Source of the DNA: Octopus vulgaris
Taxonomy: Eukaryota
DNA length: 64,000 nt
Assembly (NCBI GenBank): GCA_951406725.2
Contig: OX597818.1
Location: forward strand, 55,180,001-55,244,000
Direction: 5' to 3'
In this document: positions 7,807 to 46,123 of the stretch, in pieces
Layout of the letters: each line of letters begins with the position of its first letter
Numbering within the stretch: the stretch's first letter is position 1
Made by a program: the position numbers and the translations under genes
The notes under the pieces: generated by a model
Database searches by the model: none
Told to the model about the DNA's origin: nothing
What the model saw: the letters and a program-made list of their open reading frames with translations, nothing else

Positions 7807-7966
7807 ATGACGTATGGTGACAGCAGTGCTTCTCTGAAACCAAACTGTGCCCATGATCTGTCCTTGTTGAACCTGTCAGAAGCTTGTGATGATACACCCC
7901 TTCAACCTCATCTGGGTACTATTCAGAAAGTACCATCCATCTCGGACCTCTCTGAAGACAGTCAAG
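7807..7966 (+). CDS. ETS1: Coding exon of an ETS1/2 (pointed-P2-like) transcription factor, N-terminal region upstream of the PNT domain
   Basis: Strong acceptor (ttattctctcatttctctatttcag|ATG) and donor CAAG|gtacat. The 160-nt exon is non-repetitive and encodes MTYGDSSASLKPNCAHDLSLLNLSEACDDTPLQPHLGTIQKVPSISDLSEDSQ+G (phase 1 end). IQKVPSISDLSE matches the motif I recall just before the VPPLTPGT MAPK site in invertebrate ETS1/2/pointed proteins. Identity rests on motif recall, not a search. Confidence 0.72.
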
Positions 7967-26082: not shown

Positions 26083-26618
26083 CTATTCTACACACAACAC
26101 TCAACCGTTTATTCTCTGCATAAATCATTTCCTTCAGTTTTATTCCCCCATAGGAATTAATCGAAATCTACCTTTCTGCCTTCCTACATTTATTTATCCT
26201 TTTTTTTCTTTTTTTTTGGTTCATCTTTCGCCATTACGCCACACAACAGCCTCCACCTCCTCCTCCTCCTCCTCCTCTCTTCCATCATGGCTCCAACCCC
26301 CTACCAGCCTCTTCTTCTTCTCCTTTCTCCTCGCCCTCATCTTCCATCTCCTTTTCTCTCATCGGACGTAAATATCAACGCAATACACTCACACGATCCG
26401 TACTGCCCGCCAATCATCGGACTAATTAAGGTGGCTAATCAATCGATCTCCCATCGATTTCTCGATCACTTTACACCTCGTAATCGGATCCAATCATTGC
26501 TGTTGTTGACGTGTACACCTGTTTGATTGTTTTCCAGCGACAGGTGATTTTTTTTCTGTTCTTTTTTTTTTTTTTTTTTTGATAAGCTAATATTTCAGAC
26601 TGGATACCATCCATCCCA

Positions 26619-26633
26619 ACGCCCCCTGGCGGC
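26619..26633 (-). promoter_or_regulatory. CTCF-like motif
   Basis: acgccccctggcggc closely matches the reverse complement of the CTCF core CCASYAGRKGGCRS, in unique sequence. Confidence 0.4.
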
Positions 26634-26892
26634 ATCTTCTCGCTTCCAACTGAAACCTATCGTCACGTCACGCACCACGTAGATGTCGCTGTTGATAAGA
26701 GTACGTGACAACCGACCGACCAACCAGCCAACAAACCGACCGATTTATCCGGCCGAAGGACCGGCAATTGACCAAACGACCGGCCATCTGACCACCGATT
26801 TTCTGATCAACCAATTGACCATTCAAGCAGCCAGTCGAAGAACCAACTGATAGATCATCCGAACAAACTGCTGACCAATTGGACCAAAAGCT

Positions 26893-34688: not shown

Positions 34689-34950
34689 ATAACTGTTCGT
34701 TCACATAGTGTAACTGATATTGCAAGTCGTGTAATTAAATATTTTAGTTTATTTGTAAATTAATTAACAAGTTTATAATTGTTTCAGTTATGTTGGTCTT
34801 GTTCAGAGCTAATTACTTATGAAGAGAACAACAGAAATGACACAGAAAACTCTAGTAAACTGATTGGTAAATAAATGAATATTAATGTTCTTGTTATTAA
34901 TTGGAAAAAAAAATAATACAAATATTTACTGCTGAGAAAACTCAATACTG

Positions 34951-36499: not shown

Positions 36500-36685
36500 T
36501 GTGTGTCTGTGTTTGTCTGCCCCCATCGCTTTACAACCGATGTTGATGTGTTTACGTCCCCGTAACTTAGAGGTTCGCCAAAAGATGCCGATAGAATAAG
36601 TATAGGTGCTAATTTGTTCAACTAAACACTTGAAGGTAAGTGCTCCAGCATGACCGCGGTCCTGTAAATGAAACAAGTAAAAGAT
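36295..36685 (+). mobile_element. SINE family A
   Basis: Full body. Confidence 0.85.
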
Positions 36686-36958
36686 AGATAAATGAATAAA
36701 ATAGACAGACTGATAGCTAGACGGAGGAAGAAGTGGGTTCCTTCCGCGTTCCCTTCCTCATGCCATTCCTGCCCACCACCCCTTACTCTATTTACATTAC
36801 AAACAAACTCTGCTCAACCAAATAATCTGCTATTTCTTTAACCTTTCACCACCACCCCCTCTATCGCCTCCTCCTCCTCCTCCTCTTTCCCGCTGCCTAC
36901 CTTTCTAAAATAGCCGCCATGTTTAATACACACAAATACACGATACAACTACTATATA

Positions 36959-36992
<34 letters not shown>

Positions 36993-38785
36993 ATGCTCAA
37001 TATCTGTTGAATATTTCCAACAGTCAACACCGCCGCCGCTATCACCATTATCATTAACGCAACCGCCATCACCACCACCATCAAACAACTACGCTTTATT
37101 TGCTGCAATGCATCACTTCCCCTTTTTCAACTCATCTCTTCTCACTCTCCATTTCTTCCTCCCTCCCACCCACCCCATCCTACCTACTTTTCCGTATTCT
37201 ACTTTACTTCCTATATCTTCGTAAACATCCCAACCTCCTTTCTACGGTAAATACGTTGTTGTTGTTTATTGTTTAATCTTCTAATAAAATAATATCTCAA
37301 AGAGAAGGGCGTGGCTATCTCTCACACATACATACACAGCGAAATCTCGAAAACGAAAGTGAAACTACTTTCTCTAAATCAGCAGGTGTTTTATTTATTT
37401 GCGGCGAAGACGCGATCAGCAACCATCCTTCCGCTCATCATTGAGTATCGGACAACAAAAGCTAACTGTCCCTCTCTCAATCCCCCAGCACGATGGCCAT
37501 CTAGCTTGTGTGCTTGATCCCAGACCACGCCCATATCTGCCTGCCTCATCTCAACCAGATCTTGGCAGGTCTGTCTCATTGGTTACTTTCACTCACTGGT
37601 TTCCCCCACGTGAGAATAGAAAGGAGCCTACTTCTTCTTCTTCTTCTTCCACCTGTCTCGCTCTCCGTCTGTCTATTTACATTGTCTTTTCACTTGTTTC
37701 ATTCATCGGACTGCGGCCATGTTGGAGCACCACTTTGATGGGTTTAGTTGAACGAATTACTTAACTTTTTTAAAATCTGATATTTATTCTATTATTTTTT
37801 TTTGTTTTTTTTGCTGCACCGATACGTTACCGAGTTATAAAGGAACCAACACCAGTTGAGAAACGGCGAGGGAAAAACCAAGACACACACACACACAGAC
37901 ATTATATGACAGGCTTCCACATCGTTTCCATCACTCTCTAGTCTTTTCGTGAGCATGCGTAGTACGTGGATGAACATTTTCACTGTCGCACTGTGATGCG
38001 AAACCGTAACTTACTCAGCCCAGCCTTTTCTATCACATCACGTGATCACAACCAGTTATTTTCATTATGGTCCCAAGACAGCATTTGTGGAAGAGATCTT
38101 ATAATCTATTTCGTTTTTATATGTATACCTAGGAACATGTTACCTGATGTGACCTTAATCAGGTCCGAGAGCAGCATCTTTTATCCGTTACTTGGTTCCA
38201 GTCATAAGACTGCGGCCATGCTGGTGCAGTGCCTTGAAGAATTTTAGTCGAACGAGTCGACGCCAGTATTAATTTTTTTTTTTTTTAACCTGATACTTAC
38301 TCTATCGGTTTCTTTTGCTGGCTCGCTAAGTTTCGGTGACGTAAATATACCAATACCGGTTTGCAAGCGTTGACAGGACGGACGGACGGACGGACGGACG
38401 GACGGACGGACGGACGGACGGACGGACACACTCACATATACACATTCATATATGCAAGGGGCTTCTTTCAGTTTCTGTCTATCAAATCCACTCTCTAGAC
38501 TTTGGTCGGCACGAGGATATAGAACAACACATTTGCCCAAGGTGCCATGCAGTGGGACTGAACCCGGAACCATATGTTTGGGAAGCAAACTTCATACCAC
38601 ACAGCCAAGCGTGCTCCTGCCTATCTGTGAAAGATTTGTTATGAGTTTCATTTTTTAGCTCTGTCTAGAAGTACATTCATTATCTAACGCATCCCTCTCT
38701 GTAATTCAAAAACAAAAAATTAAATTGTGAGGTTTAAGCAAGATTTTCGGCTGCTAACTTCAGGAGATCGAGAAACCAGATAGAG

Positions 38786-39293
38786 CAGGGGTTACCAAAC
38801 TACAGCCCGTGAGGTCAGTTCATCCCGCTTGCCGCTGCACTGTACCTTTTGTGTAAGTACCTGCATTTGCCTCTAGTATGGCATCAATGTTTGGAACAAC
38901 TTATGTCTGTGAGCAAACATTTTCAATAATGAAGAATGTGAAGTCAGCACATCGAACGAGGTTGATTGATGAACATTTGAAAGCAATTCTTTTGGTTGGA
39001 TGCAGTAATTCCAAAACAAATATTGATGATGTCTTAAAAGCTAAACACCAGTTTCACAAATCTCACTAACCTTTTTTGCTGCTTAGTTTGTGAGATTCGG
39101 ATTATGTGCGCTCTGGGTTGTGATATAACTATCTCATTGCTAAACGTCGCCTTCTTTGATAACTTTTCTGGTAAATAAATATGTTGGTTGTCTTTATTGT
39201 GTATTCACTGTATTGAACAAAATGGTTATGCGGCCCGCGCTCGCCATTCTCTCAGTTATCTGGCCCGCCGTGAACAAAGTTTGATGTCCCCTG
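38786..39293 (+). mobile_element. Internally deleted hAT (Charlie/SPIN-like) transposon retaining the transposase C-terminus
   Basis: TIRs caggggttaccaaact / agtttgatgtcccctg and a perfect 8-bp TSD agatagag (38778-38785, 39294-39301). ORF 38878-39069 SMFGTTYVCEQTFSIMK...RTRLIDEHL is the hAT dimerization domain. Confidence 0.95.
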
Positions 39294-40049
39294 AGATAGA
39301 GGATCGCGAGGGACGTTGTTGTCGTAGTAGAAGAGACAAAAGAAATTGTTTGTCTGTTATCTAGGTGGAAGCTGTGACTGTCGTTTAACAGTCAACCAGC
39401 CATTGTTAAACAGACTTAACGCAGACTTACTAACAAATTTATTCCGTATGTGGCCATTTCGGTTATTTTGCTCAACACAGTTACACCCAAGACCGCTTTA
39501 TCCAATCTTTTTCGATCTTTTCCAAGACGATAGATTGAATTTCGAGCGAGATTTGTCTACCATTTCTTAACGGTTCACAAGCCAGCCACTAATATACCGT
39601 TACGTTTTTCTTCTCATTGTTTCTTTGTGAGTGAAGGTGTCGTCTGCTCGTCTTTGTTTGGATGCAGTCTACAATGTTCCGTGTGCAGCAGATGTTTTCC
39701 CACTGTCTGGTCGGTGAACAGAAACTTAATGTGCTGCACACTTGTGCTTTTGTGTTGACAACACGAGCAGCTGTGCAGAGCTTGAGCAAGTTCCGGTCCT
39801 CGTTCATCCGCGCGCGCGTCTATGTATGTATGTAATGTCTGTAACATGTATGTGTGTATATTTTCTTTTCTCAATTTTTGAGTAAATTTTGACTGGCCAC
39901 CGACTTGGTAGCATGGCTTCGAGGGAAAGTATCATGCTTTAACCGTCCTCATTCAAATCTTAAGGAGGTCTTGCAGATTTTTATAGTTCCGCATATCGTG
40001 ATCATTTTTTAGTTTAAGAATTAAGGATTTCCATTCCTTCCGCATGATA

Positions 40050-40735
40050 CCCATTTCTTTACTACCCACAAGGGGCTAAACACAAAGTGGACAAACAAGA
40101 ACAGACAAACGGATTAAGTCGATTATATCGACCCCAGTGCGTAACTGGTACTGATTTAATCGACCTCCGAAAGGATGAACGGCACAGTCGACCTCGGCGG
40201 AATTTGAACTCCGAACGTAGCGGCAGACGAAATACCTATTTCTTTACGAAATACCTATTTCTTTCCCCGTAACCTAGCGGTTCGGCAAAAGAGCCCGATA
40301 GAATAAGAAGTAGGCTTACAAAGAAGAAGTCTTGGGGGTCGATTGAGTAATCCTTCTGCTTAATCCTTATAGTTTTATCTTTTACTTGTTTCAATCATTG
40401 GTTTGCGGCCATGCTGGAGCGTCACACTGAAAGTCGAACAAATCGACTCTGAACTTATTTTTTTTAAGTCTTGGTATTCTATCGATTTCTTTGCCGAACC
40501 GCTAGGTTACGAGAATATAAACAAACCAATAACACTAGGATTGTGATACAAAGACATATATAGACATACGATGAGCTTCCACACAGTTTCCGTTTACCAA
40601 ATTCACTCACAAAGCTTTGGTCTGCCCAGGGTTAAAATTAAAGACACCTGTCCCAAGGTGTCACAGAGTGGAGCTGAACCCAACCCCACACCTTTGCAAA
40701 GCGACCTTCTTAACTACACAGCTATACCTGCACCT
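40050..40735. mobile_element. Cluster of family B (-) and family A SINE fragments
   Basis: Matches to the other copies. Confidence 0.75.
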
Positions 40736-40764
40736 ATGCATATTTCATCATTTACTTGTTTCAG

Positions 40765-40970
40765 TCATTGGACTGCGGCCATGCTGGGGCTCACCTTTTA
40801 AATACAATCCGACCATGTGCTAAATGATTTTTTTACTCATTTCGTAATTTTTCTGTGTTTTCAATGTTACCATTCCCAATGCGTATTTCATCGTTTCTTT
40901 CCATTTTTGTTTAATTTACAGGTAAGTGTGTCCGCTTTATTAATTCGCTCCAGCGTCTTTCAAGGTAAGC
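40765..40970 (+). other. Candidate recursive splice site (ratchet point) with 43-nt cryptic RS-exon (40922-40964)
   Basis: No AG dinucleotide from 40765 to 40919, pyrimidine-rich, then tttacag|GTAAGT (40919-40927). A second consensus donor caag|GTAAGC follows at 40965. Same strand as the ETS exon, ~33 kb downstream. Confidence 0.65.
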
Positions 40971-40989
40971 GTTATTACTTTACATACTT

Positions 40990-41300
40990 TCTCTTATTTG
41001 TTTCAGTCATTTGACTGCGGCCATGCTGGGGCACCGACATTTTAGTCGAACAAATCGACCTTTGTAAGCCTCGTACTTATTCTATCGGTCTCTTTTACCG
41101 AACCGCTAAGCTACGGGGACGTAAACGCACCAACATCGGCTGTCAAGCGGTGGCTGGGGGACAAACACACACACACACACACATATATATATACTGTATA
41201 TATACGACGGGTTTCTTTCGGTTTTCGTCTACCAAATCCACTCACAAGGTTTTGGTTGGCCCGAGGCTATAGTAGAAGACACTTGCCCAAGGTGCCGCAC
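40990..41300 (-). mobile_element. SINE family A (5'-truncated)
   Basis: Tail and body. Confidence 0.85.
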
Positions 41301-41699
41301 ACTGGAACATTAAAAGACAAAAAGAGCTTTGCTAAGACATCTACTATATCATAGAGACAATATGAAAGCACAGACTGAGATTTACTGGTCACTACTGGCG
41401 TGACAATGAGAAGTTGATGTCTGAAATTCTTCTATGACAACCTTCGTATTGTAAACGGAGCAGAGATAGATCAGCTAAAATCTACAGCAACCAATTGCAA
41501 TAAAGCAGTGGATGCACTAAAAAGAAATGTCGTGGATGACAGAGGAATGGAAGACGTGTTTTAGGAATGCCAGGGAATTCTTGATCCACTAAATATGTTG
41601 CTCTGAGCTACCATTTTACGCTACATGTGTGGTTGACTTTTATCAGAGTTGCGCCTCATTTAGACTAAGATTAAGACGTGTGTTTGTACAGTGTGTAAC

Positions 41700-41775
41700 G
41701 ACCGAAGTTGCGTATTGTCCTTGCCTTCGTAACGCGGAGTAGATGAAACAGTGACAACTGAAGAAGGGGAATATT
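41700..41775 (+). ncRNA. Permuted hammerhead-like motif, degenerate
   Basis: cc-GAAG-ttgcg-TA-ttgtc...gacaa-CTGAAGA-agggg. A truncated sibling at 48460-48512 has gggacaa-CTGATGA-agggg. Confidence 0.4.
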
Positions 41776-41896
41776 ATTTGTTACAGGTCTCGTTTCTCTG
41801 GGGTTTTTGTTTGTTAAAAAAAAAAGTTCGTTTCTGTGTTTTCGTTTTTATGTTTTCGTTTCTCATTGTGTTCAATATGTTTTTAATGTCCTGTAT

Positions 41897-41939
<43 letters not shown>

Positions 41940-43797
41940 TTGCTTATATATGAAGGGAACTTGACGTTGTACATAAATGTTTAATTTTAGAACAGCAGCG
42001 TTTAACAAGTTCACGTGCCAAAACAACGTATTGAAAATGAATTTATACATCATCAATTTTAAAATTGTTTTTCTAATTTTCAATGAAGAAAGACGATGGG
42101 GGACGTTTTAAGTTAAACTTCAGTGTACTTCCAGAATAAACCATTGGAGTAAACCATTAAAAAAAGAAAACGTAGAGATCTTGCACAATAAGGCGCTTTG
42201 GTTAGAGATTGTAGTCATAGTGGTTGTTGTAGGATTTGAACTCTTGTCTTTGCAGTCTATAGTCCATCCCCGCTTACATCCCATCCACTGTAATAAAAAA
42301 TATACGTGTAATCAAAATATCCCAATCTCTTGAAATGAGGATGTGTACTACTATATTGTAAAGACCCGTATTTCTAGTTCAGAGCCTCTAAGTACACTAT
42401 TGATGTCCTAAACACACCACAACATTGCTATGCACAATAAGGATAAAGGGCCGCGCCCGAAAGTTGAAAGCAAGGCCACTGTATGGACGATTATTTGAAC
42501 TTCTAAAATGAAAGCTCTCGTCTGCTAAAATGAAAGCTCTCGTCTGCTAAATTGAAAGCTCTATGTCTGAAAGTGTCTTTTACATATCTCCGTAGCTTTG
42601 AGTTTGAAATAAGAAACAAACGAGTTTCTTCCATGTTGTACAAGATCAGACATTGGATATTTGATTCTTTCATAAATATGTTCTTAAGATATTTGTTGAT
42701 AGCTCTCAAGTACACCTTGTGTTAAAGCCGTTTGTTTATAGCAAGTTCACAATGTACTACACACACTCGACGACTGCATTAGGTATATTATATGAATGAA
42801 TGCTCTGCGTAAGAGTTCACTTAATATTTGTATAGGTACAACAAAATGGCGAGCTATCTTGTGTTAGTCGGTTTTTGTGCTCGTTGATATGTAAATCTTT
42901 ATAAAAATATTTATCTTTGTAATAATGACGATTGTTAAATAAAATGTCTGTCTGTCTGTCTGGGGCATAACTTCCGGTTTGGTTCACAACTCGCTCTGTA
43001 CACAATTCTCCGTACTCAGACATTTGTATTTCAACATGGTCGTTAACGATATTAAAGCGACCACTTTTTAAAATTAGAAATTTCTTTTATCAAAAGAAAT
43101 AAAAAAAAAAAAATTCAAGATTAAAAGAAAAAAATATGAATTTCCATTCTGTCTGTCTTCCCCTCTCTTCCCTCCCCTTCTATCTCCCTCTCTCTCTCTC
43201 TCTCTCCCTTTTCTTTGCCTCTCCATCTCTCTTAATATCTTTTACCTTTTACTTGTTTCAGTCATTTGACTGCGGCCATGCTGGAGCACCGCCTTGAATT
43301 TTTAGTCGAATGAATCGATCCCAGTACTTATTTTCAAGCCTGGTACCTATTCAATCGCTCTTACTTTCGCCGAACCGCCAAGTTACGGGGATGCAAACAC
43401 ACCACCACCGGTTATCAAGCGGTGGTTGGAGACATACACAGACATAGATATACATACATACATATATGACGGGCTTCTTTCAGTTTCCATTTACCATATC
43501 CACTCACAAGGCTTATACATTTCTTTCTCTTTTTTTTTACATTTGAATTAGGAGATAAGACATTGCCAATGGCCCTTTGAAGGGCCTCAGAAACTTGTGA
43601 AAGGGACAAAGGGGCGGAAGGGATCTTCAAACCAGAGACCAGTGTAAATTCAATATCACAACGGTTTTAAAATGAATGCTTTTAAAATGTATATTTTCTG
43701 TTGCTTTTACATCAGAATATTTAACAGAAAACAATAATTCTTTTCGTTTTTGGATTTGGTTTGCAAGATTCTTTATGTGAGTTCGTGTGTTGAAGCA

Positions 43798-43984
43798 TAT
43801 TCTGTTGTGTCTGGGGAGAGTCATTCTCTTTTGGTGCCTTTTAATTTAACGACTATTGAAAAGGTTGCAAGACGCAACGAAAATTTTAGGAAAATAAAAA
43901 AGAAATAAGTGGAAATTTTACCGGTGAGTGTGTTAAATTATAAGGCACAAAAAGAAAATAACTCTCCCCAGACACAACAGAATA
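43798..43984. repeat. Inverted repeat, ~53-bp arms, 81-bp spacer
   Basis: tattctgttgtgtctggggagagtcattctcttttggtgccttttaatttaac versus gttaaattataaggcacaaaaagaaaataactctccccagacacaacagaata. Confidence 0.85.
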
Positions 43985-44514
43985 ATTCATTTAAGAAATT
44001 GGAGATGATTTCTATTGGAAATATATAAATATGCGTTTAATTAATTTTTTTCTAGAACATTAAACGTTTAATCAGATTTTAAAAAAAAAAAAACTGAAGT
44101 GCACTTTGTGACCAGATAGGACATAAAGCGAATGAGCGTGGGTTCGAGCTTAACCTATTCACTTTGATAGTTGGCAATCCCTTGGGATCAAGGAGCATTG
44201 GTGGATTAGTAAGCAGGGTTCGCAGCCCTTTTTAACGTACTCCATTGAGGGAGATTTTATTTAGTAATTGCATAGGGAATCTCAATATATTGGAGTTTTT
44301 ATACTAATTATCGCAATGTACGATATTCTATTTTCTGGACCCCTAAAACGAACCCAGAACTGAAAGGGAGACGTGATTAAGTATTGCAGTTCTTTAGGGA
44401 TCCCAACCAGTACAGCGCCCTCTGTGTTTCTGCTTACTCTCTTGCTTGTTTCAGTCATTGGATAAATGCTACTTTAGATCCTAAATTTACTATTTTGCTT
44501 GCGTGGAGGACCCC

Positions 44515-45079
44515 GGATCTTTTCGGTTTGAACGGCAGTTTTTTCTAGCGGTATCATATGAAATTGTCACCCATAATTATGACCCTAGTATCGATCTATT
44601 GCATTTCAATCTGTTTGGCTATTGTTTCTCACAAGTCGAACCGCTATATAGACCAAAGGTGAGTATTGGATCTTTTCGGTTTGAACGGCAGGTTTTTCTA
44701 GCGGTGTCATATGAAATTGTCACCCATAATTATGACCCTAGTATCGATCTATTGCATTTCAATCTATTTTAGGGTTAGAGGTGGGGGGAAGGGTATTTTT
44801 TTCTTCACAAATGTAAATAAACCCAATCTGTTTCTTAAACGAGGGGCATTTTCATACGGCACAGAATGTTTTTTTTTACCTCAATAGACGTCATTCATTG
44901 GTTGTTGCAGAAATTGAAGAAAAAACAACAACAGATATCTTACAAAGTATAGAATTTTCTCAATAAAGCCAAGAGAAAAAGATGTTTTATAAATACATTC
45001 TACCAGTATACGATGTTTAAAAGTGTTTAGTTACGTGGAAATTATTTTTAAAAAACTGCCGTTCAAACCGAAAAGATCC
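44515..45079. mobile_element. Non-autonomous TIR transposon (GG-start, 8-bp TSD; Merlin/Mutator-like) with a duplicated left end
   Basis: 29-bp perfect TIR ggatcttttcggtttgaacggcagttttt / aaaaactgccgttcaaaccgaaaagatcc; TSD aggacccc / aggacctc; second copy of the ~100-bp left end at 44668. Confidence 0.88.
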
Positions 45080-46123
45080 AGGACCTCTGCTCCCCAGGGA
45101 TCATAATGGATCCCGATTGCGAACCACTGATCTTAAAACAAGCAAAGGGTTAAGAGAGGGGTAGGGTACTATTTTGCTTGCGTGGAGGACTCCTGCACCC
45201 CAGGGGTCATAATGGATCCCGATTGCGAACCACTGATCTTAAAACAAGCTAAGGGGTAAGAGAGGGGTAGGGTACTATTTTGCTTGCGTGGAGGACTCCT
45301 GCACCCCAGGGGTCATAATGGATCCCGATTGCGAACCACTGATCTTAAAACAAGCTAAGGGGTAAGAGAGGGGTAGGGTACTATTTTGCTTGCGTGGAGG
45401 ACTCCTGCACCCCAGGGGTCATAATGGATCCCGATTGCGAACCACTGATCTTAAAACAAGCTAAGGGGTAAGAGAGGGGTATGGTACTATTTTGCTTGCG
45501 TGGAGGACTCCTGCACCCCAGGGGTCATAATGGATCCCGATTGCGAACCACTGATCTTAAAACAAGCAAAGGGGTAAGAGAGGGGTAGGGTACTATTTTG
45601 CTTGCGTGGAGGACTCCTGCACCCCAGGGGTCATAATGGATCCCGATTGCGAACCACTGATCTTAAAACAAGCTAAGGGGTAAGAGAGGGGTAGGGTACT
45701 ATTTTGCTTGCGTGGAGGACTCCTGCACCCCAGGGGTCATAATGGATCCCGATTGCGAACCACTGATCTTAAAACAAGCTAAGGGGTAAGAGAGGGGTAG
45801 GGTACTATTTTGCTTGCGTGGAGGACTCCTGCACCCCAGGGGTCATAATGGATCCCGATTGCGAACCACTGATCTTAAAACAAGCAAAGGGGTAAGAGAG
45901 GGGTAGGGTACTATTTTGCTTGCGTGGAGGACTCCTGCACCCCAGGGGTCATAATGGATCCCGATTGCGAACCACTGATCTTAAAACAAGCTAAGGGGTA
46001 AGAGAGGGGTAGGGTACTATTTTGCTTGCGTGGAGGACTCCTGCACCCCAGGGGTCATAATGGATCCCGATTGCGAACCACTGATCTTAAAACAAGCAAA
46101 GGGGTAAGAGAGGGGGTAGGGTA
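45080..46123. repeat. 106-bp tandem array, 9 near-identical full units plus a first unit split by the transposon
   Basis: tactattttgcttgcgtggagg recurs every 106 bp from 45167 to 46015; the first unit begins at 44489. Confidence 0.97.

Follow-up and report, generated by a model that had tools for sequence, protein, structure and literature searches.

The window, i.e. the whole stretch of 64,000 nucleotides of Octopus vulgaris DNA that was analysed (OX597818.1, called C5 below, positions 55180001-55244000), holds a coding exon of Ets1/pointed, Eb. This exon matches at 100% a protein named Octopus vulgaris and corresponds to the N-terminal region of Ets1/pointed; the exon of the ETS domain lies on the same strand, 156 kb past the end of the window (Table 1 gives the coordinates of the features discussed). 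The order of the exons was taken from six cephalopod isoforms mapped on 264 kb of the Ets1 locus. All four models that span the region—three from Octopus bimaculoides and one from Argonauta (P0126, P0132, P0133, P0140)—join Eb directly to the ENPYQ exon (C5:55363016), so that the intron between them measures 175 kb. The same two motifs are found within one protein in the Ets1 of chiton and abalone. The gene models of O. vulgaris split Ets1 around the ratchet-like site described below, the two that contain Eb ending at 34874, 5' of this site.

Exons Ex and Ey give in O. vulgaris a short Ets1 model, limited to the N-terminal part and followed by a run of A, which is possibly an intronic polyadenylation isoform or else an annotation artefact. 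Further on, the intron contains two internal first coding exons. The first of them has a poor pyrimidine tract and a TAG|GTAAGC end, 33.1 kb past the ratchet-like site, a spacing equal to the 33.0 kb that separate Eb from this site. At 45080-46123 of the window a 106-nt unit is repeated in tandem (9.8 copies, 98% matched).

Table 1. Features of the Ets1 locus and of the C23 intron; coordinates without prefix are positions in the window.
Feature	Position	Strand	Remarks
Ets1/pointed coding exon (Eb)	7807..7966	+	160 nt, phase 0 to 1; weak donor AAG|gtacat
Frame-preserving exon (Ex)	26599..26700	+	102 nt; two short Octopus vulgaris models only; weak donor AGA|gtacgt, score 0.2
Terminal exon (Ey)	34807..34874	+	stop codon, AATAAA; same two short Octopus vulgaris models as Ex
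SINE-like repeat fragment 5' of the island	40740..40797		many matches in the window
AG-free zone	40765..40919	+	155 nt, 65% pyrimidine, T-rich tract at end; begins inside repeat fragment
Candidate ratchet point (CAG acceptor joined to GTAAGT donor)	40919..40927	+	junction 40921/40922 (tttaCAG|GTAAGT)
Candidate cryptic RS-exon	40922..40964	+	43 nt, indivisible by 3; two frames open
RS-exon donor AAG|GTAAGC	40962..40970	+	donor at 40965, score 7.0
SINE-like repeat copy 3' of the island	40985..41308		window repeat matches
Internal first coding exon, Ets1 intron	C5:55253839-55253998		window-equivalent end 73998; ends in phase 1
Second internal first coding exon, Ets1 intron	C5:55326636-55326660		window-equivalent end 146660; ends in phase 1
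Phase-0 intron, putative couch potato/RBPMS/mec-8 orthologue	C23:663221-971251	-	308 kb; segments 75, 40, 49, 40, 51 and 54 kb

On the strand of Eb and 32,955 nt downstream of it, an acceptor CAG is fused directly to a GTAAGT donor. The initial annotation of the window had described at this place a 155-nt AG-free tract running into the fused motif, a second consensus donor 43 nt later, an island of unique DNA between SINE fragments, and a position on the strand of the ETS exon (which ends CAAG|gtacat) about 33 kb past its donor; each of these features is borne out. The 20 nt before position -4 hold 14 T and 16 pyrimidines, TT stands at -5/-6, and the branch-point candidate before 40919 is a weak TTCAT only (40887-40891). 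The island, 40801-40978, has no repeat match in the 64-kb window and lies between repeat copies which we take to be SINEs; the 191-nt island sequence finds a single matching place in the 2.8-Gb genome. These two observations rule out a repeat origin of the fused motif. The site had also been placed inside the ETS transcription unit, and the four spanning models do locate it in the sense-strand 175-kb intron of Ets1; the 43-nt segment is missing from all four.

The long AG-free tract, which does exist, had been given weight as evidence for the site. Its length is no evidence by itself, because runs that long are common in the intron (63 sense and 41 antisense runs of at least 155 nt, many of them of low complexity), and we rejected this argument.

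The rarity of the site rests on other features. A fixed scan, requiring a donor-like YAG|GT, at least 11 T in the preceding 20 nt and an AG-free stretch of at least 18 nt, was applied to both strands of the 264 kb and returned the 40921/40922 site as its sole match. With a looser scan, the Ets1 intron has nine YAG|GT sites on the sense strand and six on the antisense strand, among which 40921/40922 alone has either a perfect donor or one scoring above 4.2 downstream; the 142-kb segment 3' of 40922 shows no further ratchet-like site in the scan of the intron. On one 175-kb strand, TTTNCAG|GTAAGT with comparable T content and AG-free zone is expected 4e-4 to 8e-4 times, and 5e-6 to 4e-5 times when the downstream donor is added. 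Among the 315 TTTNCAG sites of the opposite strand, 11 match in T content and AG-free zone, and none of these 11 has a strong downstream donor.

A genome-wide count of fused sites had been proposed as well, and it reveals a class. The strict motif Y10-N-CAG|GTAAGT occurs at 117 sites in the whole genome against 21 for the reversed control (5.6x). The ratio is 1.9x (208 against 110 reversed) when +5 is broken (GTAAHT, three hexamers), and 1.1x (176 against 162 reversed) when the GT itself is broken (HTAAGT, three hexamers). For the analysis of the class we took 100 of the 117 sites, of which 16 were dropped as duplicates or repeats (n=84); 30 of the 208 and 30 of the 176 control sites were taken likewise, 9 and 10 being dropped for the same reasons (n=41). 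Class sites have more T (p = 2e-7) and longer AG-free zones (p = 0.002) than the controls, and TT at -5/-6 is present in 69 of 84 cases against 16 of 41. At +25 to +85, 32 of the 84 class sites have a second donor scoring at least 3; elsewhere in these loci 45 of 840 bins do (p = 3e-16), and among the controls 4 of 41 sites (p = 6e-4). Lowering the threshold to 1 brings these sites to 42 of 84, the lengths so delimited having a median of 46 nt and being multiples of 3 in 9 cases of 42; the other 42 sites have no donor scoring at least 1 in this interval. When the double donor is part of the pattern, the genome yields 17 matches, 9 in tandem repeats and 8 unique, the latter including the Ets1 candidate: seven unique sites besides it compare with 1.2 to 2.3 expected. 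Acceptor-like tracts are found at all eight. A related pattern with another spacing, to which the Ets1 candidate does not belong, matched 25 sites against 4 for its control and served as a supplementary list.

The class sites also tend to be grouped. Among those listed, 14 adjacent pairs lie within 500 kb of each other against 2.7 expected, 13 of them having both members on one strand; once a duplicated trio of C18 is set aside, this holds for 11 of 12 such pairs (p = 0.003). This bias is to be read beside that of the HTAAGT control, which is also same-strand biased (6:1 at 500 kb, 10:1 at 1 Mb) with pairs not clearly in excess. When the flanks are oriented by the motif, they display a T-over-A skew of +0.033, positive in 63 of 100 (p = 0.0015), as compared with +0.037 for the sense strand of the Ets1 intron and +0.009 and -0.016 for the controls. 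The positions of RRM exons (115 matches), read by eye, gave no clear host for the listed sites.

Fused sites are sometimes found in tandem or in duplicated DNA. At C5:65397978-65398586, on the minus strand, a minisatellite is made of units of about 41 nt in which two related halves (about 20 nt) can be told apart, and every unit has TTTTGCAG|GTAAGT, i.e. tandem fused splice sites; similar units of 52 nt and 57 nt occur at C3:100611594 and C4:128575623 respectively. Ratchet-like sites are duplicated at C18:15812668-15938490 and at C12:13545629/13692110, where the copies are 75-84% identical over 400-900 bp with the fused site kept; the similarity stops 90-130 nt past the junction in the C12 pair and in two of the three C18 pairs. 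Other same-strand groups lie at C13:4468667-4805403 (+), C8:21448342-22311563 (+), C9:104955604-105622524 (+) and C28:26928023-27104507 (-).

Prompted by three same-strand class sites on C23, we ran the fixed scan on 400 kb of it. Five perfect CAG|GTAAGT sites, two of them new from this blind scan, lie all on the minus strand (896086, 856438, 807794, 767842 and 717003), spaced by 40, 49, 40 and 51 kb; for each of them a second donor follows at +38 to +49. The intron that contains them is bordered by two exons, one with its end at 971252 and the other with its start at 663220; 26 residues of the latter match the RRM structures of Mec-8 and RBPMS (E 1e-10 and 9e-10). We infer that the host gene is the couch potato (cpo)/RBPMS orthologue and that the five sites are on its sense strand. 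The fixed scan finds no perfect fused site on the opposite strand of this intron, and the list of candidate exons, read by eye, offers no convincing host exon among the five sites. A sixth CAG|GTAAGT, whose second donor is weak, lies in a later intron at C23:604919.

A blind prediction for the gaps of C8 and C12, stated beforehand, came out partly true. In the C8 gap (141 kb) there is no new perfect site and there are two weaker same-strand sites; the C12 gap holds one new perfect site (donor at +60) and one weak site, but the two sites that flank it are copies of a 400-bp duplication. No sites appear on the opposite strands of the two gaps, and the even spacing of 40-50 kb is not seen in them. 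The Ets1 intron is not evenly divided, since its single site leaves a second segment of 142 kb, and this 33/142-kb division contrasts with the even spacing in the cpo intron.

Donors were scored with a consensus matrix, not with MaxEntScan. On this scale the AAG|GTAAGT that would be regenerated after Eb reaches 8.0, above the RS-exon donor (7.0) and the native donor of Eb (1.8), which agrees with the ranking first proposed, while the donor regenerated after Ex reaches 2.7 as against 7.0 for the RS-exon donor. Inclusion of the 43 nt after Eb shifts the Ets1 frame, as had been predicted, and the reading then stops at codon 147, which falls two exons later; in place of Eb, the same 43 nt keep the frame (both phase 0 to 1). 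The contigs of four sequencing runs, none of them on record as RNA, were aligned to 36600-45050 at 88% likeness: among the matches listed, in tables swamped by SINE cross-mapping, there is no joint or loose end at 40921/40922/40964, and two of the four runs have no contig cover in several unique bins of this interval.

The 43 nt might be an expressed alternative exon that merely begins with GTAAGT, either a poison cassette after Eb or an in-frame substitute for Eb giving a shorter N-terminus of Ets1. The acceptor and the donor are both strong enough to suit such an exon, but an ordinary exon needs no perfect GTAAGT as its first six bases, and the regenerated donor would still compete after either upstream exon. 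Ets1 has many alternative exons, and the chain formed by the upstream exon, the 43 nt and the ENPYQ exon runs without a stop; the segment is nevertheless in none of the four models that span the intron. Finally expressed RS-exons are known in flies and common in mammals (PMC8605326, PMC6224609), whereas the lengths in the octopus class show no enrichment in multiples of 3. On balance we hold an expressed exon to be improbable.

We give even less credit to the idea that both GT sites serve as ordinary alternative donors at the end of a non-coding or alternative first exon, or belong to an unannotated transcript of its own, lying between two gene models. CAG|GTAAGT is the best ordinary donor too, but here an acceptor-type T tract and a long AG-free zone precede the CAG. 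The two internal first exons already present in the intron would make a further one plausible, and the ENPYQ exon would accept a frame that ends at 40964 in phase 1; however the same layout recurs five times, evenly spaced, in the cpo intron, where the eye finds no convincing host exon. As for the O. vulgaris models that split Ets1 around the site, the models of its relatives and the Ets1 of chiton and abalone make one gene across it. A chance motif, unused, lying in unique intronic DNA and selected because many windows were read, is hardly credible: TTTNCAGGTAAGT does occur 772 times in the genome against 354 for its reversed control, and long AG-free tracts are common in the intron, but the expectation with a second donor is at most 4e-5 per 175-kb strand, the 11 comparable sites of the opposite strand lack a strong downstream donor, and the unique double-donor sites all have acceptor-like tracts.

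The 40921/40922 site is, in our opinion, quite probably a ratchet point of the Drosophila type with a normally skipped cryptic RS-exon, as its sequence and the analyses above suggest. The layout of Drosophila ratchet points, to which the initial annotation had likened it, is found here down to the TT at -5/-6 and the downstream donor delimiting a short exon; of that first reading, the layout, the intron, the strand and the donor ranking hold, and the AG-free tract is lost as evidence. By analogy with the work on flies and vertebrates, the 43 nt would pass for a short cryptic exon through exon definition, and Eb would be spliced to 40922 with the removal of 33 kb. The regenerated AAG|GTAAGT would next win over the donor lying 43 nt downstream and the remainder of the intron would be removed, so that the 43 nt would normally be absent from the mRNA. 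Eb, which had been designated as the upstream partner, is likely to be so, but the annotated exons Ex and Ey, lying between, had been missed, and Ex may at times be the partner. To speculate further, after this minor exon the 43 nt would be kept, because the donor regenerated there is weak, and the frameshifted message would likely be decayed.

At the scale of the genome, the class of octopus sites likely lets giant introns leave piecewise, as in flies. We offer a wider scheme tentatively, and would rather doubt it as a whole. It supposes a fly-like system where some hundreds of cryptic ratchet points pace the removal of giant introns in the octopus; the couch potato/RBPMS intron before the first RRM exon would have been recursively spliced since the fly-mollusc ancestor, acquiring sites at even intervals as it lengthened (five in 308 kb), and the RS-exon of Ets1 would act as a switch, skipped after the main exon, kept and decayed after the 102-nt exon. 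Recursive splicing in the octopus would be a known mechanism in a new lineage: the initial annotation was aware of no description in molluscs, and full-text literature searches, whose cover leaves out most subscription journals, returned no report.

Vertebrate RS-exons were reportedly described by Sibley in 2015. Like the octopus candidate, they have at their start a partial donor that is completed by the preceding exon; donor competition decides, and inclusion can hinge on the preceding exon (PMC6224609). According to the same source, fully skipped intronic sites are scarce in mammals, and annotated RS-exons that are included, under the guard of the exon junction complex, are numerous. Judged from its motifs, the octopus class looks fly-like, i.e. 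cryptic and indifferent to the frame.

For other invertebrates, the portion of PMC2773006 considered here presents a computational enrichment of RP-sites in the large introns of sea urchin, bee, beetle and mosquito which, like ours, is a motif-only enrichment on the sense strand of introns above 50 kb. Its 13 species include no mollusc or other spiralian, and RS-exons are not analysed in that portion. Because motif enrichment is found there in other invertebrates, the octopus class is to be expected rather than startling. Recursive splicing is, in the sources considered here, proven in flies and vertebrates and suggested by motif counts in other insects and in sea urchin, spiralians lying outside their cover. 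If the fly-like octopus class is true, cryptic ratchet points would be a likely general solution to giant introns among invertebrates with large genomes.

The closest comparison remains Drosophila, where ratchet points with cryptic RS-exons are given for Ubx, kuz, luna, cpo and Bx (bioRxiv 10.1101/006163, PMC8605326 and PMC6110457). The absence of the fly pnt and cpo, by name or FlyBase id, from the 9 supplementary files of PMC6110457 is uninformative on their status. The fly sites were proven by junction reads, saw-tooth coverage, lariats and conservation, while those of the octopus are candidates defined by their sequence. In both animals a fused YAG|GTAAGT stands in a very long intron after a strong T tract with TT at -5/-6; a downstream donor delimits a short cryptic exon of about 50 nt, out of frame in most cases, and the ratchet donor is the stronger one. 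Serial sites within one intron are also shared (five in luna, five in the octopus cpo), as are hosts that are developmental or neural regulators. The segments differ: 33 and 142 kb in Ets1 and 40-75 kb in cpo for the octopus, against a mean of 18 kb and a maximum of 64 kb in the fly. The site at 40922 of Ets1 and the five of cpo offer exact and cheap targets for testing recursive splicing. Besides, cpo is a recursively spliced gene in Drosophila (bioRxiv 10.1101/006163), and with a host common to fly and octopus the age of individual recursive introns can be tested directly.
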